Source: an uncultured Eubacteriales bacterium (GTDB lineage Bacteria > Bacillota > Clostridia > Christensenellales > Aristaeellaceae). From it: a DNA stretch of 64,000 nucleotides. The DNA is taken from assembly GCA_902799465.1 (NCBI GenBank), contig CADCAS010000001.1, positions 80,055 to 144,054 on the forward strand, in the 5' to 3' direction. Shown piece after piece: positions 1,608-57,145 of this stretch. A program made the translations under genes and the position numbers. Numbering within the stretch: position 1 is the stretch's first letter; every line of letters begins with the position of its first letter. Below the pieces are notes generated by a model. That model was not told the origin of the DNA. It ran no database searches and was given only the letters and a program-made list of their open reading frames with translations.

Positions 1608-1649
1608 CATAACCGGTCAGTCCTATTGAAACGTCGGACTTGTATAATC

Positions 1650-1979
1650 GAGAATGGAAAATGGAGAATGGAGAATTCAGGTGGAAATCCTTGCGGATTT
1701 CTTTTACTAAACGTAACTGTTCAGTCGGTCAGGGATGACTCCCTCAGTCAGCCTGCGGCTGACAGCTCCCTCGGAGAGGGAGCCTGGACGGAATCTCAAC
1801 AGCCTCCCTCTTTGAGGGAGGTGGCCCGCGAAGCGGGTCGGAAGGAGTCCGCGACTGAACAGTTACGATTAAACACTGTAAGCTGTGTTGTTGTGCTTGA
1901 TCACAGTCTTTTCATTCAAAGAAATCCGCAAGGATTTCCACATTCATTCTCCATTTTCCATTTTCAATTTTCAATTCTG
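1650..1979. repeat. heptamer-armed structured intergenic element A (core type 1, forward)
   Basis: Left arm is four tandem heptamers (GAGAATG GAAAATG GAGAATG GAGAATT). The right arm at 1941-1979 is their imperfect reverse complement. Core 1717-1862 is closed by CTGTTCAGTCG/CGACTGAACAG and holds several GC hairpins. Confidence 0.75.
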
Positions 1980-2084
1980 TATCCCGCCCCTCCCTTTCGC
2001 ACAATTTGTTCTTGTTAAATCCAATCATCTATGCTATAATAATTAACACAAGGCATACCATAAAATCAACAAGGGGGCTTTGCT

Positions 2085-3554
2085 ATGGCGGAAAACAGGA
2101 ATGGGTTGACGCGGGTTGCGTTTATCGGATCGGAGTGCTATCCCTTCATCAAGACGGGTGGCCTGGGCGACGTGATGTACGCCCTGCCGAGGGCGCTGAT
2201 CAAACAGGGGTGCGAGGTGCGGGTCATCATGCCCTACTACCGCTGCATCCCCGAGAAATACAAGGAGATGACGACCTACAAGGGCAACTTCATGATGGAC
2301 CTGTGCATGGACGGACGGCAGTTCTACGTGGGCATCATGGAGGCGGAGAAGGACGGCGTGATCTACGACTTCATCGACAACCGCGAATTCTTCGACTGGG
2401 GCAATCCCTACACGGGCCTGTGGGAGGACATCCCGAAGTACTGCTTCTTCTCCAAGGCCGCCCTGGCCATCCTCAATTACATGGAGTGGATCCCCGACGT
2501 GGTGCACTGCCACGACTGGCAGGCGGGTCTGGTGCCGGTGTACATGCGCACGCTGTTCGCGGGCACGCCCATCGGCGAGGCACGCAGCGTGCTGACCATC
2601 CACAACCTGCGCTTCCAGGGCATCTGCGGCATCCCCCACATGAAATACTGGACGGGCTTGCCGGACTACCTGTTCGACTATCCCGTCTTCAAGCAGAACG
2701 ACGACGACGCCAACATGTTCAAGGCCGGCCTGGCCTTCGCGGACCGCATCACCACCGTCAGCGAGACCTACGCCGAGGAGATCCAGACCATGTTCTACGG
2801 CGAGGGCCTGAACGATCACCTGTGGTATCACCGGACCAAGCTCAGCGGCATCGTCAACGGCATCGACGTGGAGCAGTGGGACGCCGCCGCGGACAAGCTG
2901 CTCACCGAGACCTACACCGCCGACGACGTCATCGAGAAAAAGAAGCTCAACAAGCGCGCCCTCCAGGAGAAGTTGGGGCTGGACGTGGACGACAACAAGT
3001 TCGTCATCGGCCTGATCTCCCGCCTGACCGACCAGAAGGGTCTGGACCTGGTGAACGCCGTATTCGAGCGCATGCTCAACGAGGAGACCCAGGTGGTCAT
3101 CCTCGGCACCGGCGATCCGCGCTACGAGGGCTCCTTCCGCTACTATGAGAGCGTCCACAAGGGCAGCGTCTGCGCCTACATCCAGTACAATGAGGCCCTG
3201 GCCCACCAGATCTACGCCAGCTCCGACGCGCTGCTGGTGCCCAGCCTGTTCGAGCCCTGCGGCCTGACCCAGCTCATCGCCATGCGCTACGGCACCGTGC
3301 CGATCGTCCGCGAGACCGGCGGCCTCAAGGACACCGTCGAGCCCTACAATGTCGAAACCGACGAGGGCAACGGCTTCACCTTCGACCGCTACGAGGCTGA
3401 CCTCCTCCTGGACGCCGTCGAGCGCGCCCGTGACCTCTTCTTCGACGAGCGCGGCAGCTGGAACGCCATGGTCATGCGCGACATGGAAAAGGACGTTTCC
3501 TGGGAGAATTCCGCCGGGAAGTATCTCAAGCTGTATGAGGAATTGAAGGGATAG
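2085..3554 (+). CDS. glgA: glycogen synthase (ADP-glucose type)
   Basis: 489 aa; GlgA hallmark N-terminus ECYPFIKTGGLGDV and C-terminal EPCGLTQL. Confidence 0.95.
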   Translation: MAENRNGLTRVAFIGSECYPFIKTGGLGDVMYALPRALIKQGCEVRVIMPYYRCIPEKYKEMTTYKGNFMMDLCMDGRQFYVGIMEAEKDGVIYDFIDNREFFDWGNPYTGLWEDIPKYCFFSKAALAILNYMEWIPDVVHCHDWQAGLVPVYMRTLFAGTPIGEARSVLTIHNLRFQGICGIPHMKYWTGLPDYLFDYPVFKQNDDDANMFKAGLAFADRITTVSETYAEEIQTMFYGEGLNDHLWYHRTKLSGIVNGIDVEQWDAAADKLLTETYTADDVIEKKKLNKRALQEKLGLDVDDNKFVIGLISRLTDQKGLDLVNAVFERMLNEETQVVILGTGDPRYEGSFRYYESVHKGSVCAYIQYNEALAHQIYASSDALLVPSLFEPCGLTQLIAMRYGTVPIVRETGGLKDTVEPYNVETDEGNGFTFDRYEADLLLDAVERARDLFFDERGSWNAMVMRDMEKDVSWENSAGKYLKLYEELKG

Positions 3555-3583
3555 GCGAATGTCGGGCAAAGCCCGACATTCGC
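3555..3583 (+). terminator. 12-bp-stem hairpin directly after glgA (no clear T-run)
   Basis: GCGAATGTCGGG-CAAA-GCCCGACATTCGC. Confidence 0.35.
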
Positions 3584-3988
3584 AGGCAACAGGCATCAGG
3601 CAACAGGCAACAGGCATTAGCCGGGGTTGCGGCAAAGCGTTTCACTGTTGATGCGAGGTCTGCATGCTTGTCGGACTGAGGGATGACCTCCGCTCGTAAA
3701 AAAGCTATCCTCGGGAAGTCAATCACGACCTCCCGAGGATAGCTTTATCTCTATAGAATGCATATATCTGTTCAGTCGTGGACTCCTTCCGACCCGCTTC
3801 GCGGCCCACCTCCCTCAAAGAGGGAGGCTTTTGGGCTTCCGTTCATGCTTCCGTTCAGGCTCCCTCTCCGAGGGAGCTGGCAGCCGCAGGCTGACTGAGG
3901 GAGTCAACCCTATGCGACTGAACAGTTGCGAACGCACCACGATTTGCCGTAACCCCGACTAATGCCTCATGTCTGATGCCTATTGCCT
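3584..3988. repeat. heptamer-armed structured intergenic element B (core type 1, inverted)
   Basis: Left arm AGGCAAC AGGCATC AGGCAAC AGGCAAC AGGCATT (3584-3618). Right arm AATGCCT CATGTCT GATGCCT ATTGCCT (3961-3988) is its complement. Core 3768-3925 is the reverse complement of 1717-1862, with a few substitutions and a short insertion. Confidence 0.75.
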
Positions 3989-4004
3989 CACAGAGGCGTC
4001 CCTG

Positions 4005-5822
4005 TCACGGGGACGCTTCTGTGCCGCTCTCCTGCGCCAGCTTTTCCACCAGCCGCTTGATGCGCTCGCGGGCTTCGGTCTGGTGCATGAACTGCTCCTC
4101 CCGGCTCTGCGGGGTGTCGCCCATGATGGCGACGAACTGGCTGACCTTGAGGCCCAGTGCGTCCTGCATGTCCCGGTCGGAGCCGTTCGGGGACACCAGG
4201 TAGTAGCACAGCAGCGAATCCTGCTGGCCTATGCGGTGCGCGCGGTCCTCGGCCTGGGAGTGAACGGCGGGCGACCAGTCCAGCTCGCCGAACACCACGC
4301 AGGTGGCCCGCTGGAGGTTCAGTCCGCTGGCGGAGCGCAGGGACACGCACAGCAGGTCCGTCTTGCCCGCCATGAAGGCCGCCGCGGCCTCGTCCTTCTG
4401 CTTATCGGTCTCACGTCCGGTGATGAATCTGGGCTTGCAGGCCTTGAGCTCCTTTTTGTAGATGTCCATCACCGCGTGGTGGTGGGCCATCAGCAGCACC
4501 TTCTCCCCGCCCTCCACCAGCGCCTTGACGAAGGCGCACACGAATGGCGCCTTGGCCACGCCGGTGGCCTGGCGCTGCTGCTGGGAGATGGCGTCCTCGA
4601 TGATGGCGCGGCGTGCGGGGTCGTCGGTGGCTTTAAGCAGCTTGAGGTTCTCGGCCACGGGCTTCATCAGCTCCCGGTACACCGCGTCGTCCCAGTCGAT
4701 CTCCTGCACCAGGCGGCGCTTGGCGGGCAGCTCCTTTAGCACGTCGGCTTTCAGCCGCCGCAGCATCAGCCCCTCGGCCCGCAGATGCTCCCCCAGCAGC
4801 TCGGGCTTGGCCACCACGGCGGTGTTGTAGCCGTAGCACCACTCCCGCGAGAAGCTCTCCCAATCGCCCAGGAAGTGGAAGTCGATGATGTTGACCACGT
4901 TCCAGATCTCGCCGCCCTGGTTGTAGATGGGCGTTCCCGACAGCCCGATGCAGTTCTCGCAGGCCTCCGACAGCAGAGACGCCGCGGAATACTTGCCCGT
5001 GCCGTTGTGGCGAAGCTCCTGCATCTCGTCGAAGATCACGGTCCTGAAGCCCAGCTCGGGCAGCACGTCCTTCCAGCCCCGCAGCAGCAGATAGTGGATG
5101 ATGTAGATGTCCGCCTCGGGCAGGGCATACGGCTTGAGGCCCCGGATGACGTGGACCCTCAGCCGCCCGTCGGGCGACAGGAAGCGCTCGACCTCCCGCT
5201 GCCAGTTGCGGATCAGATGGGGCGGCACCACCAGTATGGCGGGATAGGCCGCCGTGGTGGCCAGGAATGCCAGCGCCTGCACCGTCTTGCCCAGGCCCAT
5301 CTCGTCCGCCAGCAGGCAGCGCCGGGTGGACAGCATGAAGCCCAGTCCCTGCTTCTGGAAGGGCAGCAGTTCGCCGGTGAAGGTCTCCGCGGGCGGCGTG
5401 GCGGTCTCGGGCAGCTTCAGCGCCCGCTCCCGGCGCACGGCGTACTCCCGAGCCTCCTCCAGGGCGTTTTGCCACCGACTTTGGTCGGTTTCCTTTACCT
5501 CCAGCGGGTAGCGCAGCATCAGCCAGTTCAGCTCGCCGATGATGCGCCGGTGCGCCGTAAACCGCGCGACACCGCGCCCACGCCCGTCGCAGCCGGGAAA
5601 CAGCCGCTTCGCCAGCTCGGTCACGCAGGGCTCGCCCCTGATGGTCCAGCACTTGGACCGGCGGTTGTAGGACAGGGTGCCGTAGGTGCGCCCCCCTGCC
5701 GGCACATCCCGAAGATAGGCGGGAATGTCGCTCGGTTCGCAGGCGTCGCCGAAGTCGTCCATCACGATGGCGCCCTCCCCGGTGTACTCGTACTCCTCGC
5801 TCACGGCAGCGCCACCCCCCAC
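4005..5822 (-). CDS. SNF2-family DEAD/DEAH helicase
   Basis: Motifs LADEMGLGKT (Walker A/motif I), DEMQ (motif II) and helicase-C QAEDRAHRIGQ. A GTG at 5804 would give a GTGA stop/start overlap with the upstream gene and may be the real start. Confidence 0.9.
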   Translation of the reverse strand: MGGGAAVSEEYEYTGEGAIVMDDFGDACEPSDIPAYLRDVPAGGRTYGTLSYNRRSKCWTIRGEPCVTELAKRLFPGCDGRGRGVARFTAHRRIIGELNWLMLRYPLEVKETDQSRWQNALEEAREYAVRRERALKLPETATPPAETFTGELLPFQKQGLGFMLSTRRCLLADEMGLGKTVQALAFLATTAAYPAILVVPPHLIRNWQREVERFLSPDGRLRVHVIRGLKPYALPEADIYIIHYLLLRGWKDVLPELGFRTVIFDEMQELRHNGTGKYSAASLLSEACENCIGLSGTPIYNQGGEIWNVVNIIDFHFLGDWESFSREWCYGYNTAVVAKPELLGEHLRAEGLMLRRLKADVLKELPAKRRLVQEIDWDDAVYRELMKPVAENLKLLKATDDPARRAIIEDAISQQQRQATGVAKAPFVCAFVKALVEGGEKVLLMAHHHAVMDIYKKELKACKPRFITGRETDKQKDEAAAAFMAGKTDLLCVSLRSASGLNLQRATCVVFGELDWSPAVHSQAEDRAHRIGQQDSLLCYYLVSPNGSDRDMQDALGLKVSQFVAIMGDTPQSREEQFMHQTEARERIKRLVEKLAQESGTEASP

Positions 5823-6175
5823 AGACGGTTCAGCGATACGATCCGGACGGGCTTGCCCAGGATGCGCCCCGGCAGCGGCAGCGCCCGCTGGACGACCACC
5901 ACCGCCGCGTCCAGATCGTCGGATTCCAGATACCGCCGAAGCTGCTGGGTCAGCGCCGTCGCCGCGGGCCGCCCCTTCTTGACCTCTATGCCCACGCGCC
6001 CCACCCGGAAGTCGATGCGGCAGCGGGGTCCCAGTTTGTATTCATGCTCAAAATCAAGCCCTGCCGCGCCCAGGGCCGAAGCCACCTGGGCGTGGATGTC
6101 GTATTCCCCCGGCTGGGCGGGCATGCGCACGGCGGCCAGGGCATCGAGGATGAGGGCGATATTTGCGTCCGTCAT
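5801..6175 (-). CDS. small PD-(D/E)xK / VRR-NUC-like nuclease-fold protein
   Basis: 124 aa; D..(E)xK-like signature RIDF...GIEVKKG; translationally coupled to the SNF2 gene. Confidence 0.5.
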   Translation of the reverse strand: MTDANIALILDALAAVRMPAQPGEYDIHAQVASALGAAGLDFEHEYKLGPRCRIDFRVGRVGIEVKKGRPAATALTQQLRRYLESDDLDAAVVVVQRALPLPGRILGKPVRIVSLNRLWGVALP

Positions 6176-6633
6176 GGCATCTCCATCTCGTGTTCCATCG
6201 GTATAAACCCGTATTTTGTATACAGCGGACGCCCCTCGTCGGTGGCCTCCAGGGAGATGTGCCGAACGCCCCGCGCACGGGCGTCGGCCACCAGCATATC
6301 CAGAAGCCGCGTGGCGATGCCCCGTCTGCGGTAAGCGGGCCGCACGTACATGTTCATGATGTAGGCCTTCTCCCCCGTGGGATTGTGGCAGGTGGGCATG
6401 ACGCGGAAGTAGCTCACCCCGCCCGCGCCCACAAAGCGGCCATCATCGAAGGCCAGGTAGCCCGTGTGGCTCCCGACGGACAGCGCCCTCATGTAGTAAT
6501 CGCGGGACTGCGCCTTCACCTCGGAGAGGTCGTGATCGGCGTCCAGCCCGTTGGCGGCCCGCAGCACCTCCAGCCGCGTGGCCAGCAGCAGGTCCAGCCT
6601 GGAGAGGTCGGCTTTGATGTATTCGATATTCAA
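6172..6633 (-). CDS. GNAT-family N-acetyltransferase
   Basis: This is the C-terminal part of the long 6172..7527 ORF. GNAT motif A RRRGIATRLL is present. A TTG start at 6633 overlaps the upstream stop (TTGA). Confidence 0.8.
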   Translation of the reverse strand: MNIEYIKADLSRLDLLLATRLEVLRAANGLDADHDLSEVKAQSRDYYMRALSVGSHTGYLAFDDGRFVGAGGVSYFRVMPTCHNPTGEKAYIMNMYVRPAYRRRGIATRLLDMLVADARARGVRHISLEATDEGRPLYTKYGFIPMEHEMEMP

Positions 6634-7517
6634 GGCATGCGCTCCTGTAGGTCCATCAGCCGCTTGAGTTCTGCCGGCAGCGGCGAGGTCCGCTCGACGA
6701 TCTCCCCGGTGATGGGGTGGACGAGCCTGATGTAGGTGGAATGGAGGGCAAAGCGCCCCGGCAGCGCGGGGTCCTCCCGCCCATAGAGGAAGTCCCCGAC
6801 GATGGGATGTCCCAGGTGGGCCAGGTGGACCCGGATCTGGTGGGTGCGCCCCGTCTCCAAGCGCAGCCGCACCAGGGAACGCCCCTCCCCCGCCGCCTCG
6901 ACGCGATAGCGGGTCACCGCCCGGACGCCGTTGACCGCGTCCACCACCCGGCGGACGGTGGCGGCAGCCTCCTTGGCGATGGGCGCGTCGATGACGCCGG
7001 AGCCCTCCATGCGCCCCTCCGCCACCGCCAGGTACTCCCGCACAAACTGCTCGGTGTGCAGCTGCTTTTGCAGAGCCTGAGCGGCATGGGCGTGCCTGGC
7101 CGCGGCCATCAGGCCGCTGGTGCCCTTGTCCAGCCGGTTCAGCGGGCGAAACACCATGCCGGGATAGCGGTACGCCAGCCGGTTCTCCAGCGTCATGCCC
7201 GCCTGCTTTGCCGAGCACTGACACGCCAGCGGCGCGGGCTTGTCGATGATGAGGATATCGTCGTCCTCCCACACCACATTGACGGGGGTGGGATCGGGAA
7301 CTACCGCCGCCGCCGCGTTGTCCTCCAGCCACACCTCGACCCTGTCCCCACACTGCAAGACGTGGTTGGCGTGGACCGCGCAACCGTTGACCCGCACGCC
7401 GTCCCGGACCTTCAGCGCCGCGAACTGGTGATACGAGACCCCCATGCGTCCCCGCACGAAGTACTTCACCAGCCGCCCCGCGTCCTCCTCCGACACCGCC
7501 GCCGTCAGCACCCGCAC
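6630..7517 (-). CDS. RluA-family 23S rRNA pseudouridine synthase (RluD-like, S4 domain at the N-terminus)
   Basis: Catalytic motif LNRLDKGTSGLM and C-terminal RTHQIRVHLAHLGHPIVGD. Confidence 0.92.
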   Translation of the reverse strand: MRVLTAAVSEEDAGRLVKYFVRGRMGVSYHQFAALKVRDGVRVNGCAVHANHVLQCGDRVEVWLEDNAAAAVVPDPTPVNVVWEDDDILIIDKPAPLACQCSAKQAGMTLENRLAYRYPGMVFRPLNRLDKGTSGLMAAARHAHAAQALQKQLHTEQFVREYLAVAEGRMEGSGVIDAPIAKEAAATVRRVVDAVNGVRAVTRYRVEAAGEGRSLVRLRLETGRTHQIRVHLAHLGHPIVGDFLYGREDPALPGRFALHSTYIRLVHPITGEIVERTSPLPAELKRLMDLQERMP

Positions 7518-7654
7518 CAGCCCTCACCGCCCTTTCACACCATTATAGCATGCGCGGGTTAAAATGCAAGGCGAAAGGCGTCAATTGAACCGTGCTGATA
7601 GACGACGGTTGGCTATCATTCAGTCAAAGCGCTATACAGGGATATGACGGAGAT

Positions 7655-7835
7655 AATGAGGAATGAGGAATTAGGAATTAGGAATTGAAATAGCTTGGCT
7701 GCGTATGAGCGGTGATGCGCCGCCCACCAGGCAGCACGTATTGTTTCGATATATGACGGGCGGCCATTGACCGTTCCTACAACGCGCGGCAGTTGCTATT
7801 AATTCCTAATTCCTAATTCCTCATTCCTAATTCTC
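7655..7835. repeat. heptamer-armed structured intergenic element C (core type 2)
   Basis: Left arm AATGAGG x2, AATTAGG x2, AATTGAA (7655-7689). Right arm AATTCCT x3, CATTCCT, AATTCTC (7801-7835). The core begins AATAGCTTGGCTGCGTA..GATGCGCCGCCC. Confidence 0.75.
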
Positions 7836-7979
7836 CCCGTCAAATCCCAATTTGAAGTAACAGGGTGTATGGTAACAGCGCCCCTTCCCTCTTCCGCTAA
7901 ACTTCCATTAAGAAAGTGGACGAACCTCTCGGACTGTGCTATAATAAAGCGATGATACATCTGAAAGGGAGAAAGCGGC

Positions 7980-8531
7980 ATGAACGACTACAACGAGATC
8001 GGCGCGCGCCTGCGCGAATTGCGCGAGGTCAGCGACTACAGCATCGAGGATCTGGCGGCGGAGCTGAAGCTGGACCCCGAGGTATACGCCTCCTATGAAA
8101 AGAACGGCAAGGACGTGCCCATCAGCGTGATCTACGAGATCGCCAACAAGTTCAAGGTGGACTTCACGGAGATCGTCACCGGGCAGAGCGCCAAGCTGGA
8201 GACCTGGCACATGATCCGCAAGGGCGGCGGCAAGATCATCAACCGCAACCCGGAATACCACTTCGAGGACCTGGCCTTCCGCTATGCCAACAAGGTCATG
8301 CAGCCGCTGCTGGTGACCCTGGAGCCCACCGACGCCGTGGCCAAGCTCATCACCCACTCCGGCCAGGAGTTCAACCTGGTGCTGGAGGGCACGGTGATCG
8401 TCACCCTGGGGGACAAGGATTTCGTCCTCAACGAGGGCGATTCCATCTACTTCAACCCCACCATTCCCCACGGCCAGCGCTGCGGCAGCGCGGGGCAGCG
8501 GGCGCGGTTTTTGACGGTCATCGCGGAGTAA
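7980..8531 (+). CDS. XRE-family HTH regulator with C-terminal cupin domain
   Basis: N-terminal HTH (IGARLRELREVSDYSIEDLAAEL) and a C-terminal cupin (GDSIYFNPTIPHG). Confidence 0.88.
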   Translation: MNDYNEIGARLRELREVSDYSIEDLAAELKLDPEVYASYEKNGKDVPISVIYEIANKFKVDFTEIVTGQSAKLETWHMIRKGGGKIINRNPEYHFEDLAFRYANKVMQPLLVTLEPTDAVAKLITHSGQEFNLVLEGTVIVTLGDKDFVLNEGDSIYFNPTIPHGQRCGSAGQRARFLTVIAE

Positions 8532-8552
8532 CGCCAGGAGGGAGTCCTTACC

Positions 8553-10244
8553 ATGAACTATCTGCTCAATAAATTCCTGCCTCAGATCGAGTTTGACAGC
8601 TACGAGGAATTCAAGGATAAATTCACCATCAACGTGCCCGAAGATTTCAATTTCGGCTTCGACGTGGTGGACGCCTGGGCCGAGGCGGAGCCCGAAAAGC
8701 GGGCGCTGCTGTGGGTCAACGAGGAGGACGAGGAGCACAGCTTCACCTTCACCGACATCAAGCGCCTGTCCAACCGCGTGGCCAACTTCTTCAGCGACCT
8801 GGGCCTCAAAAAGGGCGACGTGGTGATGATGATCCTGCGCCGCCGCTGGGAATACTGGATCTGCGCCACGGCGCTTCACAAGCTGGGTGTCATACTGATC
8901 CCCGCCACCCTCCAGCTGACCAAGAAGGACATCGTCTATCGCGGCAACGCCGCCGAGGTCAAGGCCGTGGTGTGCGTGGACGACGCCTTTGTGGTGGGCC
9001 AGATGGAGGCCTCCCAGCCGGAGATCCCCTCCCTCAAGCACAAGATCCTGGTGGGCAGCCCGCGGGACGGCTGGCTCGACCTGCATGCCGAGATGGAAAA
9101 GTACCCCGAGACCTTCGAGCGCCCCACCGGCGATGCGGCCACCCGCGTCAACGACGTGATGCTGGTGTACTTCACCAGCGGCACCACCGGCATGCCCAAG
9201 CTGGTGCAGCACAACTTCGCCTATCCCCTGGGCCACATCGTCACCGCCAAATACTGGCAGCACGTGGAGGAGAACCGGCTGCACATGTCCGTGTCCGACT
9301 CCGGCTGGGCCAAGTTCGGCTGGGGCAAGATCTACGGCCAGTGGATCTGCGGCGCGACCATCTTCTGCTACGACATGGTGGGCAAGTTCAACCCCGCCAA
9401 CCTGCTCGCGAAGGTGGAGAAGTACCAGGTGACCACCTTCTGCGTGCCCCCGACCATGTACCGCTTCATGCTCCAGGAGGACCTGTCCAGGTACGACCTG
9501 TCCTGCCTGCATCACTGCGCCACCGCCGGCGAGCCGCTGAACCCCGAGGTGGTGAAGCAGTGGAAGGAGAAGGTGGGCCGGCAGATCTACGAGGGCTTCG
9601 GCCAGTCCGAGGGCCCCGTGCTGATGGCCAACTTCGGCAGCGAGTGGTTTAAGCCCATCGAGGGCTCCACCGGCAAGCCCAATCCCCTGTTTGACATCCA
9701 GCTGCTGGACAGCGACGGCAACGTCTGCGAGGACGGCGACGAGGGCAGCCTGACCATCATGGACGTGAAGCACCACCCGCCCGTGGGCCTGTTCACCGGC
9801 TACTACCGAGACCCCAAGCAGACCGAGGAGAAGCTGGGCGGCATCGGCTACAACACCGGCGACGTGCTCTGGCGCGACAGCGAGGGCTACTACCGCTTCG
9901 TGGGCCGCAATGACGACGTAATCAAATGCTCCGGCTATCGCATCGGGCCCTTCGAGGTGGAGTCCGCGCTGATCGCCCACGACGCCGTGGTGGAGTGCGC
10001 CATCACCGGCGCGCCCGACCCTATCCGCGGCCAGATCGTCAAGGCCACCGTCGTGCTGGCCAAGGGCTGGACCCCCTCCGATCAGCTCACCAAGGAGCTC
10101 CAGAACCACGTCAAGAAGCTCACCGCCCCCTATAAGTACCCCCGCGTCATCGAATACGTCGACGAGCTCCCCAAGACCGTCGGCGGCAAGATCAAGCGCG
10201 CACAGATCCGCAAGGCCGACGAGGATCAGTACGGCGCACAATAA
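8553..10244 (+). CDS. AMP-forming acyl-CoA synthetase (medium-chain/acetyl-CoA-synthetase-like)
   Basis: AMP-binding signature YFTSGTTGMPK, plus YNTGD and C-terminal PKTVGGKIKR. Confidence 0.92.
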   Translation: MNYLLNKFLPQIEFDSYEEFKDKFTINVPEDFNFGFDVVDAWAEAEPEKRALLWVNEEDEEHSFTFTDIKRLSNRVANFFSDLGLKKGDVVMMILRRRWEYWICATALHKLGVILIPATLQLTKKDIVYRGNAAEVKAVVCVDDAFVVGQMEASQPEIPSLKHKILVGSPRDGWLDLHAEMEKYPETFERPTGDAATRVNDVMLVYFTSGTTGMPKLVQHNFAYPLGHIVTAKYWQHVEENRLHMSVSDSGWAKFGWGKIYGQWICGATIFCYDMVGKFNPANLLAKVEKYQVTTFCVPPTMYRFMLQEDLSRYDLSCLHHCATAGEPLNPEVVKQWKEKVGRQIYEGFGQSEGPVLMANFGSEWFKPIEGSTGKPNPLFDIQLLDSDGNVCEDGDEGSLTIMDVKHHPPVGLFTGYYRDPKQTEEKLGGIGYNTGDVLWRDSEGYYRFVGRNDDVIKCSGYRIGPFEVESALIAHDAVVECAITGAPDPIRGQIVKATVVLAKGWTPSDQLTKELQNHVKKLTAPYKYPRVIEYVDELPKTVGGKIKRAQIRKADEDQYGAQ

Positions 10245-10257
10245 ACCCATAATAACC

Positions 10258-10297
10258 CGCCGCGCAGGTTAAAACTCCATGCCTGCGCGGCTTTTTT
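10258..10297 (+). terminator. rho-independent terminator
   Basis: GCCGCGCAGG ... CCTGCGCGGC stem followed by TTTTTTT. Confidence 0.75.
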
Positions 10298-10369
10298 TGC
10301 GGCCCGTTTAAGGCTATTTCAAGGATACCGCGTATAATGGAGCCATCCAATGAACGGGAGGCACACAAA

Positions 10370-12532
10370 ATGAAGAAACTGATCGCGATGCTACTGACCC
10401 TCTCGATGCTGCTGGCGCAGGGCGTATGCGCCGTCGCGGAGGATACCGACGAAACTACCGCAGAGGAGCGCGCGGCCATCGAGGCGGCGCTGAACCTCGC
10501 AAACAACCCGGACCAGGCCTGGTCCTACGACGCCGAAAGCGACGCCTGGACGCTGTCCATCGTGTCGGCGGTGGTCAATCCCGTGATCCCCGACGAGGAG
10601 GGCGTGTCGGTGTGCGTGCCGGGGGCCTATGTGACCGGCATCGACACCGACGGCGACGGCGCGGCGGATGTCACCGCCGAAAGCTATGCCGACACCGTGA
10701 ACGGTTCCCTGGTCATCGACTATGACGCCAGCGTCACCTCCACCCACGGCCAGGTCTACACTGCCGCCACGGCCCCGGTGATCCTGAACACCGGCGCGGC
10801 GGGCTACGGCAACTCCAGCAACACGCTGGCGTCCTCTGCCTACGCGCAGGAGGGCTATATCAACGTCTCCTGCGGCAACCGCGGCAAGCAGGACAGCTAT
10901 ACCGACGAAAGCGGCCAGACCGTCTACACCGGCGACGCGCCGTCCTGCCTCGCGGACCAGAAGGCCGCGGCGCGGTTCGTGAAGTACAACATCCTGCTGG
11001 GCAATCTGCCGGGCAGCGTGGACTACTGGGTCTCCACCGGCGGCAGCGGCGGCGGCGCGCACGCGGTGATGTTCGCGGCCACCTCCAACCATCCGGATTT
11101 CTACGACTATCAGATCGAAGTCGGCGCGGTGGGCGTCTATCGCAACGCCGACGGCAGCTATGATACCACCGTCACCATCGACGGCGAACAGGTGGAGCTC
11201 TCCGACGGCGCGTGGGGCTGCGTGGGCTACAGCCCAATCACGTCCCTCTACGAGGCCGACATGGCCATGGCCTTCGAGTATTCCCTCGACCCGGATTACA
11301 GCTTCAACACTGAATTCCAGAAGACGCTGGCGAGCTGCCTGTCTCAGGAGTACATGGAGTACGTCAACAGCCAGGACTGGACGTTTATGGGCGTCCCGCT
11401 GACCATCGAATACGACGCGGAAAGCGGAAGCTATACCGGCAGCTATGTGGATATGTACCGCTCCTGGTTCATCAACCAGCTCAACGAATATCTGAGCCAG
11501 CTGGATTACGCCGACGGCTGGACTTGGTTCGACTCGGACGGCAATACCCTGTCCGACGCGGAATTCCAAACCATGACCTTAGAGGACAAGATGCAGGCGT
11601 TCATTGAGGGCCGCTACTACAAGGGCTCCTCCGGTCGCGGCGGTCGCGGCGGCATGATGGGCGGCATGCTCCCCAGCGGCATGAACGGCAGGGCCGACTT
11701 CGGCGGCGGGCGTCCCGACTTTGCGAACGGTGAAATGCCCGACTTCGGCGGCCGGGGCGGCATGGGAGACGTCAACATGGGACCCGACGCCGGCGGCGAC
11801 GAAATGCGGGTCGGCACGCCGGATCAGGGCACCACTCAGGCCAGCGGCAGCGCCGTGGATTCCAGAAATTACGCCACCTATGAAGAGATGCTCGCCGCCT
11901 ACGCCGCCGACATCGCGGAGCTTGAGTCGGGCGACCGCTATGGCAAAAACCCCGTCGACCTCTACAATCCCCTCAACTACATCGGCGCGGAGGGCACTGA
12001 AAACCCCGCCTGGATGGTGCTGCTGTGCGGCGCGGCGGAGGGCGACATCTCCATGCTGAACTCCATGAACATCGAGATTGCCGCGCAGATGGCGGGCATC
12101 GACGCCGAAGCCCAGTGGCAATGGGACGGCGGCCACGTGCCCAGTGAAATCTTCGGCAGCTCCCTGGCGCTGCGGGTGGATCAGATGTACGGCGAATACG
12201 CGGAGAATCCCGCCCTTACCGGCGAGGCAATCACCAAATCCGATGCCGATTTGCAGACCGAAAACGGCGCCGCGGAATCCCCCACCGGCACGGACCTGAC
12301 CTCCTGGGTCAGCCTGGAGGAGGACGGGAGATATATCTTCTCCCTGGAGGACATCGCCGCCTACCGCACCGCCGCCGCCAGCAAGGCCACCCCCAGCTTC
12401 GACGTGATCGACTACGGCCAGGAGGACTACGTGTTCGGCGACACTGACACCGACGCCCGCCACTGGAGCGAATGGGTCTACAAAGCCCTGTCGGACAACC
12501 GCGAGGTCCTGGAGCCTCTGTTCAATCAATAA
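10370..12532 (+). CDS. secreted protein, putative alpha/beta-hydrolase (tannase/esterase-like) with a Gly/Met-rich insert
   Basis: Signal peptide MKKLIAMLLTLSMLLAQGVCAVA. GxSxG-like nucleophile elbow STGGSGGGAHAV. The start is placed at the internal ATG behind the GGGAGG RBS. Confidence 0.7.
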   Translation: MKKLIAMLLTLSMLLAQGVCAVAEDTDETTAEERAAIEAALNLANNPDQAWSYDAESDAWTLSIVSAVVNPVIPDEEGVSVCVPGAYVTGIDTDGDGAADVTAESYADTVNGSLVIDYDASVTSTHGQVYTAATAPVILNTGAAGYGNSSNTLASSAYAQEGYINVSCGNRGKQDSYTDESGQTVYTGDAPSCLADQKAAARFVKYNILLGNLPGSVDYWVSTGGSGGGAHAVMFAATSNHPDFYDYQIEVGAVGVYRNADGSYDTTVTIDGEQVELSDGAWGCVGYSPITSLYEADMAMAFEYSLDPDYSFNTEFQKTLASCLSQEYMEYVNSQDWTFMGVPLTIEYDAESGSYTGSYVDMYRSWFINQLNEYLSQLDYADGWTWFDSDGNTLSDAEFQTMTLEDKMQAFIEGRYYKGSSGRGGRGGMMGGMLPSGMNGRADFGGGRPDFANGEMPDFGGRGGMGDVNMGPDAGGDEMRVGTPDQGTTQASGSAVDSRNYATYEEMLAAYAADIAELESGDRYGKNPVDLYNPLNYIGAEGTENPAWMVLLCGAAEGDISMLNSMNIEIAAQMAGIDAEAQWQWDGGHVPSEIFGSSLALRVDQMYGEYAENPALTGEAITKSDADLQTENGAAESPTGTDLTSWVSLEEDGRYIFSLEDIAAYRTAAASKATPSFDVIDYGQEDYVFGDTDTDARHWSEWVYKALSDNREVLEPLFNQ

Positions 12533-12571
12533 AATCACGGCAATGACCGCCCCGCGGCGGCCATTGCCTTT

Positions 12572-12940
12572 CTATGTCTTCATGTGGGGCTTGAACAGCA
12601 GCGCGTTGATCAACCCGAACACCACCGCCGCGGTGATGCCCGCCGCCGTCCGCGTGACGCCGCCCACAAAGGCCCCGATCAGCCCATAGCGGTTCACACC
12701 CTCGATGGCGCCCATGGCCAGCGAGTAGCCAAACCCCGTCAGCGGCACCGTGGCCCCCGCCCCGGCGAAGTCCACCAGCGGCTTGTACAGCCCCAGCGCC
12801 GTCAAAAACACCCCGGACACCACAAACAGCACCAGTATCCGCGCGTTGGTCAGCTTCGTATTCATGATCAAAGCCTGCCCCACACAGCAGATCAAACCGC
12901 CGACGACAAAGGCCTTGAGGAATGGCATTATTGTTTCCAT
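12572..12940 (-). CDS. spoVAE: stage V sporulation protein AE
   Basis: 122-aa membrane protein with SpoVAE-like sequence (VPLTGFGYSL..GAIEGV). AGGAGGG RBS before the ATG at 12940; last gene of the spoVAC-AD-AE order. Confidence 0.85.
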   Translation of the reverse strand: METIMPFLKAFVVGGLICCVGQALIMNTKLTNARILVLFVVSGVFLTALGLYKPLVDFAGAGATVPLTGFGYSLAMGAIEGVNRYGLIGAFVGGVTRTAAGITAAVVFGLINALLFKPHMKT

Positions 12941-12973
12941 ATGCTTCCCTCCTGATTGGATGTTTTGAATAAA

Positions 12974-13126
12974 GGGAAAAGGCAACAGGGAAAAGGGAAA
13001 AGGAATAGCTTGGTTGCGTAGGGGCGGCGATGCGCCGCCCGCCCGGAAATACGGATTATATCGCTATAGTGCGCGCGACAGCCGTCTCCCCTTTTCCCTT
13101 TTCCCTTTTCCCTATTCCCTTTTCCC
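12974..13126. repeat. heptamer-armed structured intergenic element D (core type 2), intercistronic in the spoVA operon
   Basis: Left arm GGGAAAA GGCAACA GGGAAAA GGGAAAA GGAATAG. Right arm TTTTCCC x3, TATTCCC, TTTTCCC. The core begins AATAGCTTGGTTGCGTA..GATGCGCCGCCC, as in element C. Confidence 0.75.
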
Positions 13127-13138
13127 TAATCCGTCGCC

Positions 13139-17532: not shown

Positions 17533-17606
17533 CGAGGTGTAGCGCAGTTTGGTAGCGCGTTTGGTTCGGGACCAAAAGGTCGCAGGTTCAAATCCTGTCA
17601 CCTCGA
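17533..17606 (+). tRNA. tRNA-Pro (anticodon CGG)
   Basis: Acceptor CGAGGTG/CACCTCG, anticodon stem-loop TTTGG-TTCGGGA-CCAAA, T-loop GGTTCAAATCC. Its 3' 42 nt are part of attL. Confidence 0.9.
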
Positions 17607-17607
17607 C
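17565..17607 (+). repeat. attL core (3' part of tRNA-Pro)
   Basis: TTCGGGACCAAAAGGTCGCAGGTTCAAATCCTGTCACCTCGAC is identical to 56952-56994. Confidence 0.92.
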
Positions 17608-30211: not shown

Positions 30212-30541
30212 ATGGTATCAATGGAGAAAAAGACCAATCTGACGGTTACGATCAAGGGAACCTGTGAGGATGAAAATGGCGAGATGCACATCGTAGATGC
30301 CAAGTATGAAAACTTGGATTTCGTATTCCTGAACGCATTCAAGTTTCTCCCCAACGATCAATGCAGTCATGAGGTCGCGACGATGGGTGGTTCTTCGGGT
30401 TACATGTGGTCAAAAATCATAAAGACTATCATCGAAACTGTGGATGAGGACGGAGATTTTTTCCTTGTGATACTGAAGAGGGCCTTAACGGAATTGACGA
30501 TGAAAAGCGTCAGCGCTGACGCTTTTGAAGAAAAAATGTGA
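30212..30541 (+). CDS. hypothetical protein (moron-like, lower GC), bracketed by palindrome copies 2 and 3
   Basis: 109-aa ORF with AT-richer codons than its neighbours; its 3' end reads through palindrome copy 3 (KSVSADAF). Confidence 0.5.
   Translation: MVSMEKKTNLTVTIKGTCEDENGEMHIVDAKYENLDFVFLNAFKFLPNDQCSHEVATMGGSSGYMWSKIIKTIIETVDEDGDFFLVILKRALTELTMKSVSADAFEEKM
30503..30526. repeat. 24-bp palindrome, copy 3
   Basis: AAAAGCGTCAGCGCTGACGCTTTT. Confidence 0.9.
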
Positions 30542-30609
30542 ACCTATGTGAGTAAGATGTGAATAAATGTGAATCGATGTGAACTTGATGTGAACCCCCC
30601 TCATGTGAT
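30536..30609 (+). repeat. array of seven direct ATGTGA(A) repeats with helical phasing
   Basis: Repeat starts at 30536, 30546, 30557, 30567, 30577, 30588 and 30603, giving spacings of 10, 11, 10, 10, 11 and 15. Confidence 0.85.
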
Positions 30610-50380: not shown

Positions 50381-50590
50381 ATGGGTAATTCCGCAGCACT
50401 CGCTGAAAATTCTACCGACAGGACGGGGTTTAGTAGGACGGGGCCGGACTTTGAGTCTGGCCCCGTTTCGGACGACCCCGAGGTAAACAAGGAGGCATTA
50501 GAGCTGGCGCTGAACGGCATCGAGACGGACGACGGGCAGCTGGAGAGAGCAGAGGAACAATTCAGGAAAGACGTGGAAGGATGGTGCTAA
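50381..50590 (+). CDS. doubtful small acidic ORF
   Basis: The only in-frame ATG sits inside the TR-flanking inverted repeat. The first half has non-coding-like codon usage and crosses a hairpin (50441-50465). The second half looks coding and follows an AAGGAGG at 50489. Confidence 0.25.
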   Translation: MGNSAALAENSTDRTGFSRTGPDFESGPVSDDPEVNKEALELALNGIETDDGQLERAEEQFRKDVEGWC

Positions 50591-51630
50591 GGATGAAAGC
50601 GGTGGAAAGACTGATCGCAACGGCTGAAGCGGAGCTCGGCTACCTGGAGAAAAAGAGCAATAAGGACCTGGACAGCAAGACGGCCAACGCCGGCAGCGCG
50701 AATTATACGAAGTATAACCGCGACCTGAAGAACTGGACCGGCGTGGGCAGCCTGAGCGCCCAGTGGTGCCAGGCGTTTGTGGACTGGTTATTTATTATGG
50801 CCTTCGGCGTGGAAGTTGCGAAGAAGCTGCTGGGCAAATTCACCAACTACACACCCACCGGGTCCGACGCCTTCAAGAAGCGGGACGCCTACATCAAGCG
50901 GGGCAAGGGAAAGCCGAAGCGCGGCGACGTGATTTATTTTTACTCCAGCGCGAAGGGCAGGATCGGCCACGTGGGCATCGTGACGGATGTCACCAGCTCC
51001 AAGGTGTACACCATCGAAGGCAACACCAGCGGGGCCAGCAGCCTGGTGACGAACGGCGGCGGCGTCAAAAAGAAGAGTTACAGCCTGTCCAGCACCTACA
51101 TCGACGGCTATGGCAGCGTGGATTATTCCGTGGTGGACGGTCTGGACTTCAAGGCCCCGGAAGTGGTGGCCGTGAAGCTGGGCGACCGGCTGCTGAAGAA
51201 CGGCAGCGAGGGCGACGACGTGAAAGAGCTCCAGGCGGCGCTGATCGGCCTGGGCTTCAGCTGCGGCAGCTATGGCGCGGACGGCGAATATGGGGATTGC
51301 ACTGAGATGGCCGTACGGGCCTTCCAGGCGGCCCACGGCTGCGAAGTCGATGGAGAATATGGCCCGGAGACGCACGCGGCCCTGGAGGCCGCCGTGGACG
51401 CCCAGAGCGCCGGAGCGGACCCGGAGGCCGCCCAGTATGTGCAAATTGAAAAGGGTAAAAAGTGCTACATAAGGACCGGCCCCGGCACGGAGAACAAGGC
51501 CCTGGGCGTGGCGCACAGCCTGGACAAGCTGCAATACGCGGGCGAGACCGCGGAAAACGGCTGGCACCGGGTCAAGTACGGGAACGGGCTGGCCTGGGTA
51601 TCCGGCAAGTACGGGAAGCTGGTGGCGTGA
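50581..51630 (+). CDS. endolysin (CHAP/NlpC-P60-type amidase + PG_binding_1 + SH3-like)
   Basis: QWCQAFVDW (catalytic Cys context), GHVGIV...IEGNT, LKNGSEGDDVKELQAAL, and C-terminal SH3-like GWHRVKYGNGLAWV. Confidence 0.88.
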   Translation: MVLRMKAVERLIATAEAELGYLEKKSNKDLDSKTANAGSANYTKYNRDLKNWTGVGSLSAQWCQAFVDWLFIMAFGVEVAKKLLGKFTNYTPTGSDAFKKRDAYIKRGKGKPKRGDVIYFYSSAKGRIGHVGIVTDVTSSKVYTIEGNTSGASSLVTNGGGVKKKSYSLSSTYIDGYGSVDYSVVDGLDFKAPEVVAVKLGDRLLKNGSEGDDVKELQAALIGLGFSCGSYGADGEYGDCTEMAVRAFQAAHGCEVDGEYGPETHAALEAAVDAQSAGADPEAAQYVQIEKGKKCYIRTGPGTENKALGVAHSLDKLQYAGETAENGWHRVKYGNGLAWVSGKYGKLVA

Positions 51631-56951: not shown

Positions 56952-56994
56952 TTCGGGACCAAAAGGTCGCAGGTTCAAATCCTGTCACCTCGAC
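56952..56994 (+). repeat. attR of the prophage, doubling as the left att of the tandem element (tRNA-Pro 3' remnant)
   Basis: Exact 43-bp copy of 17565-17607. Confidence 0.92.
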
Positions 56995-57145
56995 CACCCC
57001 AAAAAGCCTTGAAAACACAGCGTTTTCGGGCTTTTTTCTTATTGCTGAAAGCACCAGTTTCCCTAAAATTGCCCTAACCAGCATTGAAATGAGCCTCAGC
57101 GTGATTAATACAGGGTGCTACATATGGAAGATTTCACATCAAATA

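Follow-up and report, generated by a model that had tools for sequence, protein, structure and literature searches.

Foldback elements with heptanucleotide-repeat arms and a nested MITE in intergenic DNA of rumen Clostridia

The window, that is, the whole 64-kb stretch of DNA analysed here, is host DNA from position 1 to ~17,565 only, and the remainder is mostly a prophage lying between two copies of a 43-bp direct repeat. The initial annotation had described four intergenic elements, A to D, each consisting of an arm of tandem heptamers, a core, and a complementary arm, and this architecture is real. All four are present at the coordinates reported there, between convergent, divergent, and tandem genes, and the period-7 arrays that Tandem Repeats Finder (TRF) detects in the 64 kb are solely the arms of these elements (1646-1676, 1945-1976, 3583-3616, 7655-7686, 7800-7833, 12971-13003, and 13089-13127), the right arm of B (3961-3988) being too degenerate for detection. 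The self-complementarity of the arms is borne out as well, at 82-94% over 31-66 nt:

A, 1646-1711 with 1911-1976: 66 nt, 85%
B, 3591-3640 with 3939-3988: 50 nt, 82%
C, 7639-7686 with 7801-7848: 48 nt, 92%
D, 12973-13003 with 13097-13127: 31 nt, 94%

The stems, 30-66 bp in length, have MFE z-scores against dinucleotide shuffles of -15.0 (A), -12.3 (B), -12.6 (C), and -5.9 (D), and in three elements the inverted repeat is longer than the heptamer arrays, extending inward in A and B and outward by 16 nt in C. As a control for chance, 454 kb of unrelated viral loci yielded 13 weak period-7 arrays and no inverted pairs. The same elements are contained in independent ENA and JGI assemblies (L001-L010, L079, and L159) and therefore are not an assembly artefact, a caveat that had been attached to their original description.

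On the queA side, element A is a composite of nested features:

1578-1607, + strand: queA terminator hairpin (terminator-like match), within the ~405-nt present/absent segment that carries A
1609-1623, + strand: degenerate MITE-TIR-like sequence ATAACCGGTCAGTCC, 22 nt outside the left arm of A
1646-1676, + strand: left arm of A, GAGAATG/GAAAATG units (TRF and arm pairing), with the unit order found in L160
1682-1704, + strand: left half of the inner inverted repeat, pairing with 1918-1940
1705-1712, + strand: left TSD copy TACTAAAC of the MITE within A, 6/8 identical to 1867-1874
1713-1866, no strand assigned: MITE in A (the “type 1 core”), TIRs GTAACTGTTCAGTCG / CGACTGAACAGTTAC, with GC-rich hairpin modules as cargo
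1867-1874, + strand: right TSD copy GATTAAAC of the MITE within A
1918-1940, + strand: right half of the inner inverted repeat
1945-1979, + strand: right arm of A, CATTCTC/CATTTTC units (TRF and arm pairing)

The TIR-like sequence beside A has 11/14 TIR matches (null P for this score or better ~0.01 in an ungapped scan). Presence of A is polymorphic among strains: the ~405-nt segment with the queA terminator hairpin and A is missing in 8 strain contigs. This indel is flanked by CCCCGCCC and takes in the queA terminator, and is no clean MITE insertion. Element B, on the glgA side, has a similar nested layout:

3555-3583, + strand: hairpin directly 3' of the glgA stop codon, abutting the left arm of B
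3584-3618, + strand: left arm of B, AGGCAAC/AGGCATC units (TRF and arm pairing)
3619-3640, + strand: left half of the inner inverted repeat, pairing with 3939-3962 and opening with the core-head motif TTAGCC
3699-3748, no strand assigned: 20-bp hairpin in the original core of B (inverted-pair detection)
3756-3763, + strand: left TSD copy GAATGCAT of the MITE within B, 6/8 identical to 3930-3937
3764-3929, no strand assigned: MITE in B (the other “type 1 core”), lying in the opposite orientation to that in A
3930-3937, + strand: right TSD copy GAACGCAC of the MITE within B
3939-3962, + strand: right half of the inner inverted repeat
3961-3988, + strand: right arm of B, degenerate GTTGCCT-type units (arm pairing)

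In strain L006, the left arm of B is one unit shorter and the MITE differs in the number of its modules. The two type 1 cores do match each other in inverted orientation (at 90% over 88 nt and at 91% over 82 nt), as had been noticed, but they are not cores: each is a conventional MITE, with TIR and TSD, lodged in the loop of a foldback, in opposite orientations in A and B. The contention that the termini vary, unlike those of MITEs, does not hold for this element, which has a conserved 15-bp TIR, GTAW-CTGTTCAGTCG, and an 8-bp TSD. Its 14 copies (12 loci in 9 rumen MAGs and 2 in the window) are 130-183 bp long; all 14 have CTGTTCAGTCG...CGACTGAACAG, most with GTAW/WTAC flanks. The mean identity of the TSDs is 84% (perfect in 6 copies, 6/8 for those in A and B), and the target 8-mers are AT-rich, with a mean of 29% GC vs 41-61% GC of the loci. 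Conservation across copies is confined to ~15 bp at each end, the cargo being wholly different between subfamilies; within one MAG, RUG13367, three copies at different sites and with different TSDs have a common cargo, a heptamer foldback with AAGTTCN arms.

The loci L011-L022 were chosen by a search for MITE termini, so that both the density of arrays in these MAG loci (27 period-7 arrays in 75 kb) and the association of MITEs with foldbacks, namely, a heptamer foldback as cargo in 5 of the 12 intact MITEs found elsewhere (L011, L013, L014, L019, and L022), are biased upward. A sixth large foldback (L013, 2427-2857) has 12/14 TIR matches on both sides, and in L021, a heptamer arm is itself interrupted by a MITE, whose TSD, GAATTAAG, is perfect. 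Across ~750 kb of other Clostridia (80 loci), 9 arrays are spread over 8 loci, with L079, L105, L106, L111, and L150 accounting for 6 of the arrays. In the loci analysed, no pair of TIRs 1-3 kb apart was found that would mark an autonomous IS with the MITE termini, and a viral scan gave single chance matches. At the foldbacks themselves, A has a TIR-like match on one side only, C has a gapped match on one side, B and D have no TIR that we could find, no TSD is visible at the boundaries of any of the four, and about half of the foldbacks elsewhere are without TIR and TSD, so that MITE transposition is not demonstrable for B, D, and these others; L165 and L166 have heptamer arrays with no TIR within 14-21 kb.

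The remaining two elements carry the “type 2” cores:

7614-7628, + strand: degenerate TIR-like sequence TATCATTCAGTCAAA outside C (read from sequence)
7639-7654, + strand: left half GGGATATGACGGAGAT of the outer inverted repeat of C, resembling the right flanks of the L160 copies
7655-7686, + strand: left arm of C, AATGAGG/AATTAGG units (TRF and arm pairing)
7687-7800, + strand: core of C (type 2), quasi-palindromic in its own right (AATAGC to GCTATT)
7801-7833, + strand: right arm of C (TRF and arm pairing)
7834-7848, + strand: right half TCCCCGTCAAATCCC of the outer inverted repeat of C
12971-13003, + strand: left arm of D, AGGGAAA units and one AGGCAAC, 31 nt from the start codon of spoVAC (- strand)
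13004-13088, + strand: core of D (type 2), sharing its head with C
13089-13132, + strand: right arm of D, on the - strand directly after the spoVAD stop codon

The match of TATCATTCAGTCAAA to the TIR reaches 11/14 only with one gap (8 in the ungapped scan), and outside its heptamers C has a conserved outer inverted repeat. That C and D have homologous cores with different heptamers is confirmed by a common 37-nt head, 89% identical. D is inserted between the spoVAD stop codon and the spoVAC ribosome-binding site and must be transcribed, lying inside the spoVAD-spoVAC operon. It is a complete ~160-nt unit at a tight junction that measures 0-12 nt in most relatives and contains no such element in 11/11 relatives inspected (SpoVAC 74-93% identical), which on sequence comparison makes D a lineage-specific insertion.

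Contrary to the initial annotation, the heptamers are not specific to each locus. Three loci of another genus (L160, GlgA 82% identical) have the arm of A with its units in the same order, units like those of B and D turn up in other MAGs (L011, L013, and L020), and three MITE copies of one MAG have the AAGTTCN arms in common. As far as these recurrences go, the heptamers are family-specific, and several families coexist in a single genome of rumen Clostridia. The arms usually comprise 4-5 units with some fixed and some variable positions, and the loop often opens with a TTAGCC/ATAGCT motif. The purine-rich, AGGNAWN-like arm is 5' in 17/17 informative pairs, and the phase of RGG is fixed. In D, in L105, and at two places in L011 (1905 and 7875), arrays touch or overlap the stop codon of the gene upstream; another in L011 (6977) begins ~12 nt after it, the array of L021 sets in where the upstream gene ends, and arrays also adjoin ribosome-binding sites. 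The outermost units can absorb the adjacent stop codon (TAATTCG x3 in L150, TAGGGCG in D).

The stems could be selected cis-acting RNA structures, such as operon stabilisers, RNase III sites, or bidirectional terminators; their high stability, the position of D inside an operon, the adjacency of arrays to stop codons and ribosome-binding sites, as in Xanthomonas, and the union of a common core with different self-complementary arms in C and D all fit this scenario. However, covariation for a long stem, as had been suspected, is not what the strains display: of the SNPs in the B stem, few as they are for such a test, six disrupt a pair, three preserve it by a change on one side, and none is compensatory, and the core changes of D in L002 also break pairs. 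Furthermore, 6-18% of the positions in the arms of A-D are mismatched, whole 7-nt units are gained and lost independently in each arm, A is dispensable in 8 strains, the elements occur in any gene orientation, and no terminator-like U-tract was detected at them. No Rfam family matches the elements at the gathering score, in agreement with the earlier failure to recognise a described repeat class; relaxing the limit to E<=1 adds two matches below threshold, one of D to a plant miRNA hairpin and one of the queA terminator hairpin to an sRNA. Given the Rfam result and the lack of compensatory changes in the B stems, A-D do not look like a new structured RNA, and we consider selection for RNA pairing unlikely. 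The other suggestion made initially, a copying mechanism that regenerates the arms, is possible in the form of homogenisation between arms. Alternatively, the elements would be immobile, the arrays being produced by local polymerase slippage, with snap-back or template switching at a small hairpin copying the inverted partner. The whole-unit indels between strains, the capture of stop codons by outermost units, the solo arm in L150 where L105 and L106 have a pair, the missing TSDs at most foldbacks, and the slippage hypothesis cited for comparable repeats (PMC4692102) speak for it; against it stand the identical arm unit order and related loops at unrelated loci in different genera, the presence of the same foldback in three TSD-flanked MITE copies, the common core of C and D, and the arrival of D as a complete unit in a junction that is otherwise minimal. 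A purely local origin is an improbable account.

Two further possibilities assign the arms a function. The purine arm might serve as a platform on which a protein that binds RNA or ssDNA reads one trinucleotide per 7 nt, with the complementary arm as a masking competitor. HutP, which acts on UAG-N4 repeats with a site period of 7, as well as TRAP, CsrA, and S1 are comparable binders, and similar proposals exist for the TAACTGA repeats of Beggiatoaceae. The NAG/RGG trinucleotide does keep a fixed phase in every purine-type arm while other positions vary even within one array, and the polarity of the arms is strict; however, no protein that might bind was identified, the families within one genome have very dissimilar units, the elements occupy every gene context and also the inside of MITEs, and the NAG phase is partly a trivial outcome of purine richness, the L105 units (AATGCGG) lacking AG altogether. 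Such a platform is very unlikely. Least credible of all is the possibility that the elements are invertons, with the arms as recombination sites and a flipping promoter in the core. In strain L002, the core of C is 41 nt long and in the opposite orientation, aligning better with the reverse complement of the window core than with its forward strand (score 25 vs 17), and some MITE-borne cores contain TGTTATAAT. The flipped core, however, is also truncated and ~25% divergent, B has a single orientation in 11/11 spanning contigs (10 strain contigs and the window) and D in 3/3, the cores of A-D have no strong promoter match, and there is no invertase nearby, the only recombinases being those of the prophage or island.

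The explanation that we favour, and consider somewhat more probable than the contrary, is that A-D are part of a mosaic of selfish repeats, intergenic, non-coding, and lineage-restricted, in rumen Clostridia of high GC content, spread in part as MITE cargo; the repeats look akin to the heptamers of Xanthomonas. Three kinds of module are found in it, namely, a classical MITE with TIR, TSD, and a preference for AT-rich 8-mers, foldback elements with stems made of heptanucleotide microsatellite arrays, and GC-rich hairpin modules. The sequences show foldbacks travelling at least partly as internal MITE cargo, and younger MITE copies lodged in AT-rich parts, loops as well as arms, of foldbacks that were there before them, which gave rise to the type 1 cores seen in A and B. 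After insertion, the TIRs probably decay while the arrays go on gaining and losing whole 7-nt units through replication slippage. The complementarity of the arms may then go back to their origin as a palindrome, perhaps with renewal by template switching or inter-arm conversion, rather than from maintenance by selection for RNA pairing, and the different heptamers may represent subfamilies that diverged through concerted turnover of the arrays. Transcribed elements, such as D, would form long dsRNA stems that, by analogy with Correia and ERIC elements, could be RNase III targets, stabilisers, or partial terminators, as a side effect. The strict purine-first polarity and the fixed RGG phase do not follow from this account, and in L166, where the two arrays are not complementary, the polarity persists, which hints at a constraint or mechanism outside this model.

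Inverted heptamer arrays in rumen Clostridia are, to our knowledge, seen here for the first time. The claim that they belong to no described repeat class stands with respect to Rfam but not wholly with respect to the literature, given that Xanthomonas genomes each carry ~70 inverted pairs of (GGGANTN)n heptamer repeats near stop codons, mostly transcribed and of unknown function (PMC4692102). The GGGAATC repeats of Xanthomonas and the GGGGA(C/T)T repeats of Nostoc (Rehm et al. 2015, PMC4692102) likewise are tandem heptamers, most often of ~4 units, with conserved G-rich and variable positions; the Xanthomonas arrays, too, are mostly intergenic, lie at a very short distance from the stop codon that ends the upstream ORF, form convergent pairs with the G-rich strand first that are capable of stem-loop formation, and differ in unit number between related strains. 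Unlike in Xanthomonas, the hosts here are rumen Firmicutes, several heptamers coexist in one genome, and the arrays are linked to a TIR/TSD MITE and GC-hairpin modules, whereas no link to mobile elements was reported for those of Xanthomonas. Most of the units also lack G-quadruplex potential: GGG runs occur only in D-type (AGGGAAA) and L013-type units and in none of the A, B, or C units, which are not of the GGGAATC type. The STRR heptanucleotide repeats of heterocystous cyanobacteria and the TAACTGA repeats of Beggiatoaceae (PMC4679880) are similarly abundant intergenic tandem heptamers, often near start or stop codons, but for the most part these consist of a single fixed heptamer, or of a few, repeated in direct orientation and without regular pairing into foldbacks.

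The type 1 element resembles bacterial MITEs, such as Correia/NEMIS and, reportedly, the Chunjie MITE of Geobacter, in being short and non-coding, with conserved TIRs, a TSD of fixed length, many dispersed copies, and a highly structured interior, as well as in its ability to sit in operons and be co-transcribed. It differs in that only ~15 bp at the ends are conserved, the cargo changes with the subfamily, the foldbacks often come without TIR or TSD, and no autonomous partner was found in the loci analysed. Internal tandem repeats in a MITE have a precedent in BrickBuilt of Porphyromonas gingivalis, which is reported to contain a minisatellite (PMC4596501). With the BIMEs and REP/REPIN elements of enterobacteria and Pseudomonas, A-D share mosaic palindromic modules in alternating orientation, intergenic placement after stop codons and between operon genes, hairpin doublets, and the absence of a TSD. 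Unlike those elements, they have stems made of microsatellite arrays, no REP consensus with a GTAG head common to the arms, and no RAYT gene: the association with a RAYT or IS200/IS605-type transposase that had been suggested found no transposase-family match among the window proteins scanned or the host genes called.

Several bacterial phyla have an excess of heptanucleotide repeats in their intergenic DNA, and arrays enclosed by MITE TIRs and TSDs offer a testable route for their spread. The elements lie within operons, beside stop codons and ribosome-binding sites, differ between strains with identical neighbouring proteins, and are likely candidate break points in metagenome assemblies; therefore, they could serve as strain markers and could confound small-RNA annotation.

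Eukaryotic Foldback (FB) transposons have long inverted arms of short tandem repeats, variable in number between copies, 9-bp TSDs, and a related transposase. It is a rather long shot, but conceivable, that the heptamer-microsatellite foldbacks constitute a new class of bacterial mobile element, either a prokaryotic counterpart of Foldback or MITE hitch-hikers, with arms renewed by slippage and inter-arm copying and the purine-first polarity set by the way they are made or inserted; if so, this would provide a dispersal mechanism for the unexplained excess of intergenic heptanucleotides in Xanthomonas, cyanobacteria, and others. Unlike for FB transposons, neither TSD nor transposase is shown for the bacterial foldbacks, and there is no homology between the two. 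Integron attC sites are not a match, the arms having no R''/L''-L'/R' boxes (RYYYAAC...GTTRRRY) as read from their letters, and no intI is present. As in FB transposons, the variable loop can hold unrelated DNA: L105 and L106 have arms on both sides of a 0.57-kb cassette, the one arrangement in which the elements are associated with a cassette.

The host, an uncultured Clostridia bacterium of the rumen, is GC-rich (about 60-64%) and spore-forming, and its four heptamer foldbacks, designated A to D (hairpins formed by a heptamer arm, a core or loop, and a complementary arm), are accompanied in the window by a prophage and an additional integrase gene:

A: between queA and glgA; arms of 66 nt, 85% complementary
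B: between convergent glgA and SNF2 helicase gene; arms of 50 nt, 82% complementary
C: between divergent genes; arms of 48 nt, 92% complementary
D: between spoVAD and spoVAC; arms of 31-33 nt, 91-94% complementary
17,565-56,994: prophage, ~39.4 kb, bounded by a direct repeat, with terminase, portal, capsid, tail and lysin genes
17565-17607 and 56952-56994: 43-bp perfect direct repeat, the 3' end of the second tRNA gene
57143-57210: 19-nt tandem repeat, 3.8 copies, preceding the integrase gene
57258-58481, - strand: tyrosine integrase gene, just beyond the prophage repeat, in lower-GC DNA (57143 onward, GC 0.50-0.54)

Because the prophage starts at 17,565, all four elements fall within only ~17.5 kb of host DNA. 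The integrase region is probably a second island, integrated in tandem at the same tRNA site. An associated transposase or similar enzyme had been envisaged for the elements; no transposase, RAYT or invertase was found among the window proteins scanned, and the recombinase detected is the integrase outside the prophage repeat.

The architecture described in the initial annotation, with each left arm complementing its own right arm, is genuine, as attested by Tandem Repeats Finder (TRF), arm complementarity of 82-94%, and folding. Period-7 arrays, located with TRF and by reading the sequence, occur at only seven places in the 64-kb window, namely, both arms of A, C and D plus B's left arm, B's right arm being too degenerate for TRF to call. 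One long hairpin is predicted for each of A to D (z = -15.0, -12.3, -12.6 and -5.9, respectively, against dinucleotide shuffles), and our own period-7 scan detected no inverted pairs in 454 kb of unrelated viral loci. An assembly artefact, one of the refutations that had been contemplated, is contradicted by the recurrence of A to D in independent assemblies of this species from ENA and JGI. Rfam provided no real match for the elements, either at the gathering score or at E<=1, and BLAST returned nothing relevant for A among plasmids or for C among phages. Weak, symmetric sigma-70-like matches (TTGAAA, 17-18 nt spacer, GAGAAT) at 1626-1655 (+) and 1974-1946 (-) are consensus matches only and arise because the heptamer of A resembles a -10 box.

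The cores are a different matter. The proposed relationships between them hold, in that the type 1 cores, those of A and B, are inverted copies of one another (~90% identity), and the type 2 cores, those of C and D, share a 37-nt head (89%). The type 2 core has no copies beyond C, D and their strain variants in the 1.3 Mb of loci examined, and its head has no matches in the viral-contig scan. The type 1 sequence, which accounts for half of the described cores, is not a conserved core at all, but an ordinary nested MITE. When 185,579 species genomes were scanned for CTGTTCAGTCG and CGACTGAACAG separated by a 96-156 nt gap, 12 loci were recovered, every one in rumen MAGs; with the two window copies, they make 14 elements of 130-183 bp, with the extended termini GTAW-CTGTTCAGTCG and CGACTGAACAG-WTAC. 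The flanking 8-mers are direct repeats with a mean identity of 84%, six of them perfect (for example, AATTTGCA, CCTTGTAC and GAATTAAG), and these targets average 29% GC within loci of 41-61% GC. The target-site duplications (TSDs) are TACTAAAC/GATTAAAC in A and GAATGCAT/GAACGCAC in B, where the MITEs sit in the loops in opposite orientations. The conserved terminal inverted repeats (TIRs) and the 8-bp TSDs thus identify the type 1 cores as a conventional transposable element that inserted later. Its interior is entirely different between subfamilies, and the copy within B of strain contig L006 carries additional hairpin modules.

No autonomous partner, for which the expected TIR pair would be GTAWCTGTTCAGTCG ... 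CGACTGAACAGWTAC, was found in the viral-contig scan or in the loci examined. The 15-mer TIR has 56 single matches and no pairs in viral contigs, and the viral loci with single matches served as a background control only. Literature searches with the TIR string returned only unrelated primer or guide sequences, and those for MITEs of the rumen or of Oscillospiraceae yielded nothing pertinent. A possible likeness to the IS6/IS26 family lies in the CTGTT motif and the 8-bp length of the TSD. Two copies with perfect 8-bp TSDs and AT-rich, non-palindromic cargo reside in MAGs labelled Veillonellaceae (L015 1619-1743 and L018 6475-6599), which suggests either cross-class spread or a binning error.

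The MITE and the heptamer foldbacks are physically linked. A heptamer foldback forms the interior of 5 of the 12 MITEs (L011, L013, L014, L019 and L022). Three copies in one MAG, RUG13367, share AAGTTCN arms and a ATTAGCTTGTTATAATTGG core and occupy different sites with different TSDs, so that the foldback can move as MITE cargo. The large foldback of L013 (2427-2857) has 12/14 TIR matches on each side; a TIR-like ATAACCGGTCAGTCC lies 22 nt outside the left arm of A (11/14 matches, null P about 0.01), and another, TATCATTCAGTCA, at C reaches 11/14 only if a gap is allowed. In L021, a MITE is inserted within a heptamer arm with a perfect TSD. Because it was by way of the MITE that the MAG loci were chosen, the strength of the association is inflated. 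About half of the foldbacks, B and D among them, show neither TIR nor TSD. No convincing TSDs were found at the TIR-less foldbacks; the direct repeats CCGATAAA and CAGTCAAA/CCGTCAAA, around the third foldback of L160 (a locus of another genus) and around C, are too alike to be random targets.

GC-rich hairpin modules, which the window MITEs carry as cargo (CCTCCC..GGGAGG, GGCCCGCGAAGCGGGTC and GTCAGCC..GGCTGAC; 1737-1850 and 3781-3905), are a third repeat class in this mosaic; without TIRs, they also lie beside heptamer arrays in other genera:

L165 13750-13800: GC-hairpin module
L166 9050-9180 and 12090-12400: GC-hairpin modules
L020 2398-2450: GC-hairpin module

A palindromic element with the ends TGTCATYCYGAGCG...CGCTCRGRATGACA has lodged inside the core of each of two large heptamer foldbacks (L011 2030-2170 and L013 2565-2675) and is also the cargo of the L017 MITE (2103-2200).

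The heptamers, held by the initial annotation to be specific to each locus, turn out to be specific to families. L160, where GlgA is 82% identical, carries three ~100-nt foldbacks whose left arms, GAGAATG GAAAATG GAGAATG GAGAATG, reproduce the unit order of A and whose loops are TTAGCCTGCAAACACAGGC. Arrays resembling those of B and D (AGGCAAT/AGGCATT and AGGGAAT/AGGGATT) are present in L011, L013 and L020, and GAGTNCA arrays in three RUG13367 loci as well as L019 and L020. The motif (A/T)TAGC(T/C) recurs in the loop beside the left arm in B, C, D, L011, L013, L014 and L160, and the inverted repeat of C continues 16 nt beyond the heptamers, with similar sequence flanking the L160 copies. This recurrence of arms, loops and flanks implies that the heptamers are subterminal parts of repeat families with a common architecture, which probably share ancestry. 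The L160 foldbacks (9306-9372, 9786-9870 and 12115-12215) bracket glgA again, with different neighbouring genes; this could be coincidence, site preference or an old association.

Neither did the suspected covariation of the arms materialize. At paired positions, the strain variants of B have six SNPs that break the pair, three that keep it by a one-sided change and none that is compensatory; in the core stem of D, the window and L002 show three differences, all of which break pairs. Whole units are gained or lost independently in each arm: L006 is one unit short in the left arm of B only, and the AGGCAAC variant unit of D changes position among the window, L002 and L079, and the opposite arm does not change to match. 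NAAGTTC is freely variable at its first position, and often mismatched there, in the MITE copies of RUG13367. C and D have a common core, yet different self-complementary arms (AGGAATK vs AGGGAAA), and in L002, C retains its arms around a 41-nt core, ~25% divergent and in the opposite orientation; the arms of C and D may differ through concerted array turnover in both arms, or else the cores may be exchangeable. Inversion as a general property of the elements was rejected upon comparison of orientations among strain contigs.

Insertion polymorphism bears on mobility. In the window species, D occupies ~160 nt exactly between the stop codon, itself provided by the first TAG-containing unit, and the ribosome-binding site; it is absent in 11 inspected relatives (SpoVAC 74-93% identical), in most of which the stop of spoVAD overlaps the start of spoVAC or is separated from it by 0-12 nt (the L086 spacer is longer). 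A is carried by the window, L003 and L159 (GlgA 97%) and missing in eight contigs with identical GlgA; the indel of ~405 nt has CCCCGCCC at its flanks and takes in the queA terminator. In view of the presence of A in the divergent strain L159, this polymorphism may have arisen by deletion and not by insertion. Comparing A and B with orthologous loci in other genera yielded nothing because synteny around glgA is not conserved there. In a low-GC Clostridia lineage, a 0.57-kb cassette lies between GGAATGC/GGAATTC arms immediately downstream of the spoVAC stop (L105 10365-11014 and L106 10365-11001); it contains an XRE-type HTH gene plus, as judged by eye, a small divergent ORF. In L150 (10371-10403), the left arm alone is present, with a terminator after it.

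Heptamer foldbacks are lineage-restricted. The 75 kb of MITE-bearing MAG loci contain 27 arrays and many pairs, and loci of other Clostridia selected via SpoVAC contain nine arrays in 8 of 80 loci (~750 kb), six of them in the same species (L079) or the low-GC lineage (L105, L106, L111 and L150). The GlgA relatives of 78-82% identity are divided: arrays are present at L160, L165 and L166 and absent from L162 and L164.

Several regularities stand out. In all 17 informative pairs, the 5' arm is the purine-rich one and the 3' arm the pyrimidine-rich one, a polarity that holds on both strands in a palindrome, and that is kept in L166 although its two arrays are not complementary. Arrays start at stop codons or a few nucleotides away. 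G-quadruplexes were rejected as a general explanation because most units lack G-runs.

The elements resemble BIME mosaics as well as Correia and ERIC elements in their likely mode of action, and eukaryotic Foldback transposons in form. The claim that the class is undescribed survives in part: the elements do not fit REP/REPIN, attC sites, invertons or Rfam families, but inverted heptamer pairs have been described in Xanthomonas, and its (GGGANTN)n repeats are the closest description (Rehm et al. 2015, PMC4692102). Purine arms carry an RGG/NAG trinucleotide at a fixed phase, an AGGNAWN-like unit close to the Xanthomonas consensus GGGANTN. There, each genome has 183-186 arrays, 70-75 of these in convergent inverted pairs; the mean distance to the upstream ORF is 28 nt, array length differs among strains, and most arrays are transcribed, with no mobile-element link seen and function unknown, and polymerase slippage is the only published idea for the period of 7 (PMC4692102). 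The TAACTGA repeats of Beggiatoaceae (PMC4679880) and cyanobacterial STRRs are relatives in kind. New here are the occurrence of heptamer foldbacks in rumen Clostridia, the existence of several heptamer families with one common architecture, and the direct physical link of heptamer arrays to a TIR/TSD MITE.

Within the prophage, an Rfam RT-18 RNA motif (50394-50494; 64.7 bits, gathering score 41.3) lies directly upstream of a CHAP/PG_binding/SH3 endolysin gene (50581-51630), with no reverse transcriptase in the one flanking ORF scanned. A 114-nt tandem repeat (54478-54954; >4 copies over three overlapping TRF rows, 72-80% matches) sits within a 1206-aa ORF (52343-55963), and a cluster of 10-, 21- and 31-nt repeats of the ATGTGAAC type in an intergenic region (30530-30596) may be an operator or origin.
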